A DNA stretch of 33,901 nt from a virus. Its lineage: Duplodnaviria > Heunggongvirae > Uroviricota > Caudoviricetes. The notes beneath the pieces are model-generated. The model was not told where the DNA came from. It saw only the letters and a list, made by a program, of their open reading frames with translations, and did no database searches. The stretch is taken from positions 1 to 33,901 of the IMG/VR virus record IMGVR_UViG_2671180699_000001, one strand, 5' to 3'. Position numbers and translations under genes: made by a program. How positions within the stretch are numbered: position 1 is the stretch's first letter; every line of letters begins with the position of its first letter. This document shows positions 18,775 to 19,339 of the stretch, one piece after another.

Positions 18775-19135
18775 TCACCATAACTGCTAACCATTCTGAC
18801 CATTTCACAAGTGACAGAGTCAATATCGTATTCTGTCACTGTCAGGCTAATACAGCAATGCAATTCAACTACAGCAATGCCTCGTATTTAGGTGAATTTA
18901 CAATATCGTCCAGTTCGGATGCCGGCTGCATTTCTGAAGATAAGGCATTTCGGTTCTCGTATTTTCCCCTCATGCTCGTCAGTCCTGCGCGTAGTAAGAA
19001 ACAGGACACTCACACTAATTTGTGTGGGCATGCTGTGATGTCCTTCTGAATTATCCCCATGCCATTATGTAAAGCTCTGTTTCAGATGCTCGTCACGGTT
19101 GTCAGGCTGTCGGGTCCTCCCAGTGGGGGTCCCTG

Positions 19136-19160
19136 CCACGGGGCGGGAGCGTCGCGGAAA
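19136..19160. other. cos-like site (cosN): ACGGGGCGGGAGCGTCGCGG resembles lambda cohesive-end region ACGGGGCGGCGACCTCGCGG
   Basis: Direct comparison with the recalled lambda cos sequence; lies about 180 bp upstream of the terminase small subunit gene. Confidence 0.5.
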
Positions 19161-19339
19161 AAGGCTAGTTTTTGCATTTCCATGGCGGCGGCAGCATGTT
19201 TGGTAATTTATTGATAATTAAAAGTTATTTCTCTTTTCAGCTGTACAATATTTTTTTCTCCCTGTCATTAGACTAGTTTGCAATTAATTGAAATATATAA
19301 ATAAACCTGATTTTCACCTGCCAGATGGAGTTGCTTATG

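Follow-up and report, generated by a model that had tools for sequence, protein, structure and literature searches.

A probable lambda-type cos site upstream of the terminase genes of an Escherichia coli lambdoid prophage

Where would the packaging enzyme of this phage cut its DNA, and what ends would it leave? The question concerns a GC-rich stretch (72% GC across 19100-19160) upstream of the terminase genes in the window, by which we mean the whole 33,901-nt stretch of DNA analysed here. A first-pass annotation had placed a cos-like cohesive-end site within 19100-19200 and had described it as closely parallel to the lambda cosN region; we found both the site and the parallel, and the lambda cosN sequence that it had quoted was correct when checked against J02459. 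The 20-mer ACGGGGCGGGAGCGTCGCGG is present as a single copy in the window at 19138-19157 (+), 185-197 bp before the small-terminase start, and is identical at 16 of 20 positions to the lambda cosN junction, which in J02459 reads ...GGTTACG/GGGCGGCGACCT/CGCGGGTTT (here and below, a slash inside a sequence marks a nick). No second site with up to three mismatches to ACGGGGCGGGAGCGTCGCGG was found in the window, and none in 100 shuffles. With a first-order Markov model, chance would supply the lambda 20-mer at up to four mismatches 0.025 times per window (5 of 200 simulations). Comparison of the window 12-mer GGGCGGGAGCGT with lambda GGGCGGCGACCT gave 8 identical positions of 12, with the mismatches confined to bp 7, 8, 9 and 11 and with bp 1-6 identical, and the CG dinucleotides next to both nicks are kept (CCACG/GGGCGGGAGCGT/CGCGG), which leaves the left half-site intact along with the CG flanks. 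The candidate cosN, CG/GGGCGGGAGCGT/CG, thus occupies 19139-19154 (+), with a predicted top-strand nick at 19140/19141 and a predicted bottom-strand nick at 19152/19153. The predicted 12-nt 5' cohesive end, GGGCGGGAGCGT, would span 19141-19152 (+), and the predicted right end is its complement, 5'-ACGCTCCCGCCC, on the - strand. A search of the literature with the 12-mer yielded nothing but an unrelated paper on a mammalian promoter. A 51-codon ORF at 19059-19214 (+) overlaps cosQ, cosN and part of cosB, and several phage records annotate a "hypothetical protein" there; the ORF is without a Pfam or PHROG match and is probably a spurious gene call.

The lambda cosQ heptamer, absent from the first-pass annotation, was found here at the right distance from the predicted nick. 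GGGTCCT at 19112-19118 (+) is identical to lambda cosQ, a packaging-termination signal, and is the sole copy in the window; the gap from cosQ to the top-strand nick is 22 nt, compared with 23 nt in lambda. The composite GGGTCCT-N18-23-CG/GGGCGG-N6/CG likewise has one copy, at 19112-19154, and is expected only ~2e-5 times per window. The heptamer is found at -29 to -23 in 111 of the 119 viral contigs with the window cosN, even where the sequence farther upstream is unrelated, and relatives from other genera have AGGTACTCC at the cosQ position. In three IMG/VR contigs GGCTCCT replaces GGGTCCT at cosQ, which represents a natural cosQ point variant.

The small terminase gene downstream (TerS; 19337-19864, +) encodes a protein of the DUF1441 family (Pfam DUF1441, 5e-43; PHROG phrog_141 "terminase small subunit", 2.8e-63), and the large terminase gene (TerL; 19873-21972, +) encodes a GpA-family ATPase and endonuclease (PF05876 GpA_ATPase, 5e-81; PF20454 GpA_nuclease, 1.8e-86). 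Alignment of TerL with lambda gpA over 627 aa gave 24% identity (E 7e-22), in line with the earlier description of TerL as a GpA-family protein not identical to lambda A. A lambda-family portal gene follows TerL, and a 739-aa ORF at 23442-25661 (+) encodes a Gifsy-2-type head protein in which a ClpP-type protease is fused to the major capsid protein; the fused protease/coat arrangement of Gifsy-2 type is mentioned in PMC12315714. The ORFs of TerS, TerL, the portal and the protease-capsid fusion all run full length and match their families strongly. For TerS, the ORF begins at ATG 19325, the start used in the cdtI annotation, and the equivalent of ATG 19337 is used in the Tritos annotation; since MSN(V/I)S is the N-terminus of homologues from other genera, ATG 19337 is the likely start. 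A Pfam search returned no Phage_Nu1 match for the window TerS even at E<=10, and BLASTP of TerS against lambda Nu1 gave an E value of 3.4, that is, no similarity. Profile searches in PHROG produced reciprocal cross-hits, from the window TerS to phrog_57, the family of Nu1 (7.5e-9), and from Nu1 to phrog_141 (5.6e-8, residues 2-150), and hhalign of TerS against Nu1 over the N-terminal HTH gave a weak match (12.7% probability). The cross-hits and the hhalign match suggest that TerS and lambda Nu1 are distantly homologous. A PDB profile search with the TerS family profile returned no relevant structure, and a single-sequence TerS model had a pLDDT of 47 and was unusable. No promoter-like or terminator-like site was found in 18400-19500, which fits read-through of a late operon.

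The region between cosN and TerS would be expected to hold the sites bound by the small terminase if the cos reading is right. A repeat search of 19100-19345 returned weak two-copy repeats only, and the candidate cosB sub-sites were therefore set by cross-genus conservation. An I2-like spacer, CGCGGAAAAAGGCTAGTTTTTG (19153-19174, +), lies between cosN and cosB within the conserved core, and reads CGCGGRAAAMGGCTMRTTTT across Enterobacterales relatives and CGCGGAAGTCGGCAGTTTTTCGG in Cr-LKS3. It is followed by the R3-like block CATGGCGGCGGCAGCATG (19181-19198, +; bp 41-58 of the virion map), a candidate first TerS-binding site and the first block conserved solely in the window's TerS lineage. This block reads CATGCTGGCGGCAGCATG in Scandinavium, CATGCTGTCAGCAGCAGG in Providencia and Proteus, and ATGGGCCGCAGCATC in Cr-LKS3, and its position is near that of lambda R3 at bp 50-65 (PMC9026076). 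An IHF-consensus site, TATCAATAAATTA (19204-19216, -; consensus WATCAANNNNTTR), is a candidate I1 equivalent; the consensus has four matches in the whole 33.9-kb window, with 1.87 expected, and one of these is inside the ~180-bp cosB. The YAANNNNTTGATW form of the site is kept in most aligned relatives. The block TTTTCAGCTGTACA (19234-19247, +) aligns with the conserved TTGAGGTGACA of Proteus, Providencia, Yersinia and Rahnella relatives and is tentatively assigned as R2-like; by eye it resembles 19311-19324 at 9 of 14 positions. Another conserved block, CCCTGTCATTAGAC (19260-19273, +), has a CTGTCA core that is invariant in 11 aligned relatives and that, in Proteus and Providencia, pairs with a preceding GGTGACA block as an inverted repeat. 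Directly before the TerS start, at 19311-19324 (+), cross-genus conservation also marks an R1-like block, TTTTCACCTGCCAG, the TCACCTG of which is kept in nearly all aligned relatives.

We compared the upstream regions of DUF1441 terminase genes in PhiR40_1, VT1-Sakai, CP-1639, Fels-1, Gifsy-2, Citrobacter phage Chris1 and Providencia phage PSTCR8lys and in prophages of Scandinavium, Yersinia, Rahnella, Xenorhabdus, Proteus and Providencia, the prophage loci being located by a search with a three-sequence TerS alignment and the window-type lineage being aligned with MAFFT. The same layout recurs: a cosQ-like element (GGGTCCT or AGGTACTCC) is followed by CCACG/GGGCGGnnnnnn/CGCGG, by the spacer CGCGGRAAAMGGCTMRTTTT, by a lineage-specific block at bp 41-58, by the YAANNNNTTGATW element, and by CTGTCA/TGACAG blocks up to the start codon. 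The distance from the nick to the TerS ATG is fixed at ~187 nt in the Scandinavium, Yersinia, Rahnella, Xenorhabdus, Proteus and Providencia relatives. The same architecture is found upstream of related terminases in Salmonella phages too, and comparable sites are present in Fels-1, Gifsy-2, VT1-Sakai and CP-1639. Modularity was evaluated in 119 IMG/VR contigs with the exact 25-mer GGGCGGGAGCGTCGCGGAAAAAGGC. Similarity to the window stops 20-39 nt past the nick, just after the I2-like spacer, in 82 of these, and at least three unrelated cosB classes are represented among the 119, each tied to a TerS identity class (90-100% or ~40%). Mosaic junctions are seen on both sides of the cosQ-cosN-I2 core, on the right at 19153-19180 and on the left at 19105-19112; mEp460_ev081, for example, is 98% identical to the window over 18800-19180 and then diverges. 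The class of cosB co-varies with the TerS N-terminal region, the first ~70 residues being barely alignable between cosB classes and 70% identical within the window's class. The C-terminal half of TerS is 42-57% identical (38% in an Aliivibrio relative), and the N-terminal 290 aa of TerL are 72-78% identical across enterobacterial relatives (54% in the Aliivibrio relative).

The cos region shows 98-99% identity to that of phages HannyBb, Tritos and cdtI. Base 1 of both the cdtI (AB285204/NC_009514) and the Tritos (OV696610) records corresponds to window 19141, so that the predicted left end GGGCGGGAGCGT, which the first-pass annotation had also proposed, is the start of both deposited genomes; these are deposited starts, either measured or set by analogy. 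Both records end ...CCTGCCACG. Over cosN and through the genome's first 33 bp, the window is sequence-identical to the cdtI/Tritos site, and 19141-32600 is 98.1-98.6% identical to the two phages. In E. coli LF82 Tritos is prophage 3; it forms virions and plaques, and its ends are not discussed in the paper on that strain (PMC9928086). The prophage type is common, given that at least 80% of a 3.5-kb stretch of the window (17500-21000) is present in 489 of 5,426 complete E. coli genomes. A 22.9-kb contig deposited as "MAG: Veillonella parvula" (JAGZPX010000007.1) carries the window prophage's cos and a TerS that is 99% identical; in the Veillonella parvula bin it is almost certainly a contaminant. 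Two N10 runs in the window, at 15266-15275 and 32601-32610, represent scaffold gaps or masked stretches, and the BLAST alignments with cdtI and Tritos end at the second.

Cryptic copies are frequent among E. coli lambdoid prophages, and we considered that the cos site could be intact in a prophage copy that is defective or non-inducible, so that the site is never used in its host. The two N10 runs limit how far completeness of this copy can be judged. However, the terminase, portal and protease-capsid genes are full-length, all of the cos sub-sites are intact, and the structural region is 98% identical to that of virion-making phages, and we consider a defective copy unlikely.

A second alternative is a functional cos whose nick positions or overhang length depart from the prediction, for instance through a 9-11-nt 5' end or shifted nicks, since the terminase is far from that of lambda (24% identity between TerL and gpA). 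This alternative gains from Cr-LKS3, a cyanophage of Cylindrospermopsis with TerS and TerL of the same families as those of the window (38% and 44% identical, respectively), for which 9-nt 5' cohesive ends, GGGCTCGCG, were experimentally reported (PMC9303873). It also gains from natural spacing variants: the interval from CG/ to /CGCGGAAAAAGG measures 12 nt in the window; VT1-Sakai has 11 nt, CP-1639 has 10 nt and the mEp460_4F5 record has 9 nt, and the 11- and 10-nt forms recur in independent contigs (17 and 44 IMG/VR stretches, respectively). The 9-nt interval of mEp460_4F5 was not found in IMG/VR, and is probably an assembly artefact (maybe at true virion ends) or a rare mutation. The mEp460_4F5 record starts 5 nt left of the nick. 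On the other side, the Cr-LKS3 record ends (OM373202) read ...GGGTCCCTCC...GACGCG/GGGCTCGCG/CGCGGAAGTCGGCAGTTTTTCGG...ATGGGCCGCAGCATC and align to the window cos as GGGTCCCTCC..CG/GGGCTCGCG/CGCGGAAGTCGGCAGTTTTT; the first base of the end is the aligned G that follows CG, and the end stops right before the aligned CGCGGAA. The Cr-LKS3 overhang thus fills the interval between the conserved flanks exactly, and the same rule gives 12 nt in the window. In addition, two depositors put base 1 at 19141, and lambda shares bp 1-6 and both CG flanks exactly. Given that a relative with a 9-nt end and natural 10- and 11-nt spacing variants exist, the 12-nt length in the window rests on the CG flanks, and we infer from the comparison that the window element would yield a physical overhang of 12 nt with 5' polarity. 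A scan of IMG/VR and metagenomes found no contigs ending at the nick; the matches were prophages in integrated form or contigs broken by assembly close to where the conserved core ends, and hence uninformative on physical ends. A different nick position or overhang length is, in our assessment, very unlikely, although flank spacing does vary naturally between 9 and 12 nt within the window's terminase family.

The last alternative, a chance GC-rich resemblance with no packaging role in a phage that packages by the headful (pac) route, draws on the cos motif being short and GC-rich, but is scarcely credible and is effectively refuted by the conservation of the site, given that the composite is so rarely expected by chance, that sequence and position are conserved across several genera, that TerL belongs to the family of lambda's cos-cutting enzyme, that TerL phylogeny places related phages among the cos packagers (PMC5764929; PMC12315714), and that the window shows a GpA-type TerL and conserved cosQ and cosN rather than headful-type features.

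We conclude that, with high probability, an E. coli lambdoid prophage of the cdtI/Tritos/Gifsy-2-head type has its cos site at window 19112 to ~19330. Support for this reading comes from the lambda match, cosQ and the low chance expectation, from the deposited starts and the active relatives, from the fixed position and the modularity of the site, and from the IHF site, TerS ancestry, the Cr-LKS3 ends and the lack of promoter-like or terminator-like sites in the region. It is weakened by the 9-nt Cr-LKS3 end, the 10- and 11-nt variants, the weak cosB repeats, the low identity of TerL to gpA, and the explicit naming of the related mEp213/LLS cos as "putative". By analogy with lambda, the small terminase would bind cosB (~19175-19330), probably aided by an IHF-induced bend at 19204-19216, and TerS on cosB would position the GpA-type large terminase on cosN. 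The large terminase would then nick the top strand at 19140/19141 and the bottom strand at 19152/19153, leaving 12-nt 5' cohesive ends with the left end 5'-GGGCGGGAGCGT, and the DNA would be packaged rightward from the terminase genes. Packaging would be expected to stop at the next cos in the concatemer, a step for which cosQ (19112-19118), cosN and the I2-like spacer would be needed. The first-pass observation of a cos-like site is thus confirmed, and its interpretation as a cos-type packaging site is supported as far as sequence can show. The site itself is ordinary and already on record, being of a class of cos site surveyed in the literature and belonging to a common E. coli lambda-like prophage; a recognised cos of a widespread lambdoid prophage family adds little new biology. 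Its value is for annotation, in that the virion map origin can be set at window 19141, the 51-codon ORF is probably spurious, and a TerS start at 19337 is suggested.

Among known systems, the survey of Feiss et al. 2015 (PMC4669245) defines lambda-like phages by 12-nt 5' ends resembling those of lambda, with natural variation of the overhang in bp 7-12 (bp 9 and 12 for N15; bp 8, 9 and 11 for Gifsy-1) and with cosQ and the CG pairs beside the nicks highly conserved; it reports selection on bp 1-6 and the CG flanks. The predicted window cos fits this pattern exactly. Gifsy-1 was dropped as a literature anchor, having lambda/21-type head genes and being absent from the match list of the window's TerS family. 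The likeness to lambda extends to the cosQ heptamer, bp 1-6, both CG flanks, the order cosQ, cosN, spacer, cosB, terS and terL, an IHF-consensus site between the first and second conserved cosB blocks, and a GpA-family TerL. The differences from lambda are found at overhang bp 7, 8, 9 and 11, in a cosQ that is 1 nt closer to the nick, in a cosB of unrelated sequence, in a TerS that is Pfam DUF1441 and not Phage_Nu1, in a TerL of 24% identity, and in Gifsy-2-type head genes with the ClpP-capsid fusion. mEp213/LLS, which are likewise lambdoid, whose heads are Gifsy-2-like, whose TerL is of GpA type and whose 12-nt end is lambda-like with variation in its right half, have the putative end GGGCGGCGCGCT, and their cos is called "putative" or "inferred" in PMC12315714, which cites Vahanian et al. 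2017 (Virology 509:140) for it. They differ from the window in the overhang's right half and in a chimeric TerS, only residues 80-175 of which resemble the window's (54%). The GGGCGGCGCGCT overhang is also found in Providencia and Proteus relatives. In cdtI and Tritos, cosN, the I2-like spacer and cosB are essentially the same as in the window, TerS is 99.4% identical at the aa level and the structural genes are 98% identical at the nt level; cdtI differs in the sequence upstream of cosQ and otherwise has the same site in another lysogen. Cr-LKS3 resembles the window in a cosQ-like GGGTCCC, a left nick at CG/GGGC, /CGCGGAA..GGC.GTTTTT on the right and an R3-like ..GCCGCAGCATC, and differs in its 9-nt overhang, its cyanobacterial host, a genome of 66% GC, and a much shorter cosB with the TerS start at bp 95. 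That a cyanophage from Lake Kinneret and an E. coli prophage share cos elements is a striking case of DNA-site conservation across bacterial phyla.

The modularity of the site matches the picture drawn by Feiss and colleagues for lambda and phage 21. There, TerL reads cosQ and cosN, which the phages have in common, and the DNA-binding domain of TerS reads cosB, which is specific (PMC4669245; PMC9026076). In the present comparison, cosQ, the left half of cosN and the I2-like spacer persist at TerL identities of 24-44%, and cosB is exchanged together with the TerS N-terminus. One tentative and, in our judgement, rather doubtful extension is that the ~63-bp cosQ-cosN-I2 core is a portable cassette read by the large terminase and naturally joined to at least three unrelated cosB/TerS-DNA-binding-domain specificities, with a flank interval varying between 12, 11, 10 and 9 nt. 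Such a cassette is probably covered in part by Vahanian et al. 2017; if true, it would mean that cohesive-end length in this terminase family is set by the DNA flanks and not by a fixed enzyme geometry. The joint exchange of cosB and the TerS N-terminus seen here is a clear example from nature of the lambda/21 specificity model, with small terminases of another family.
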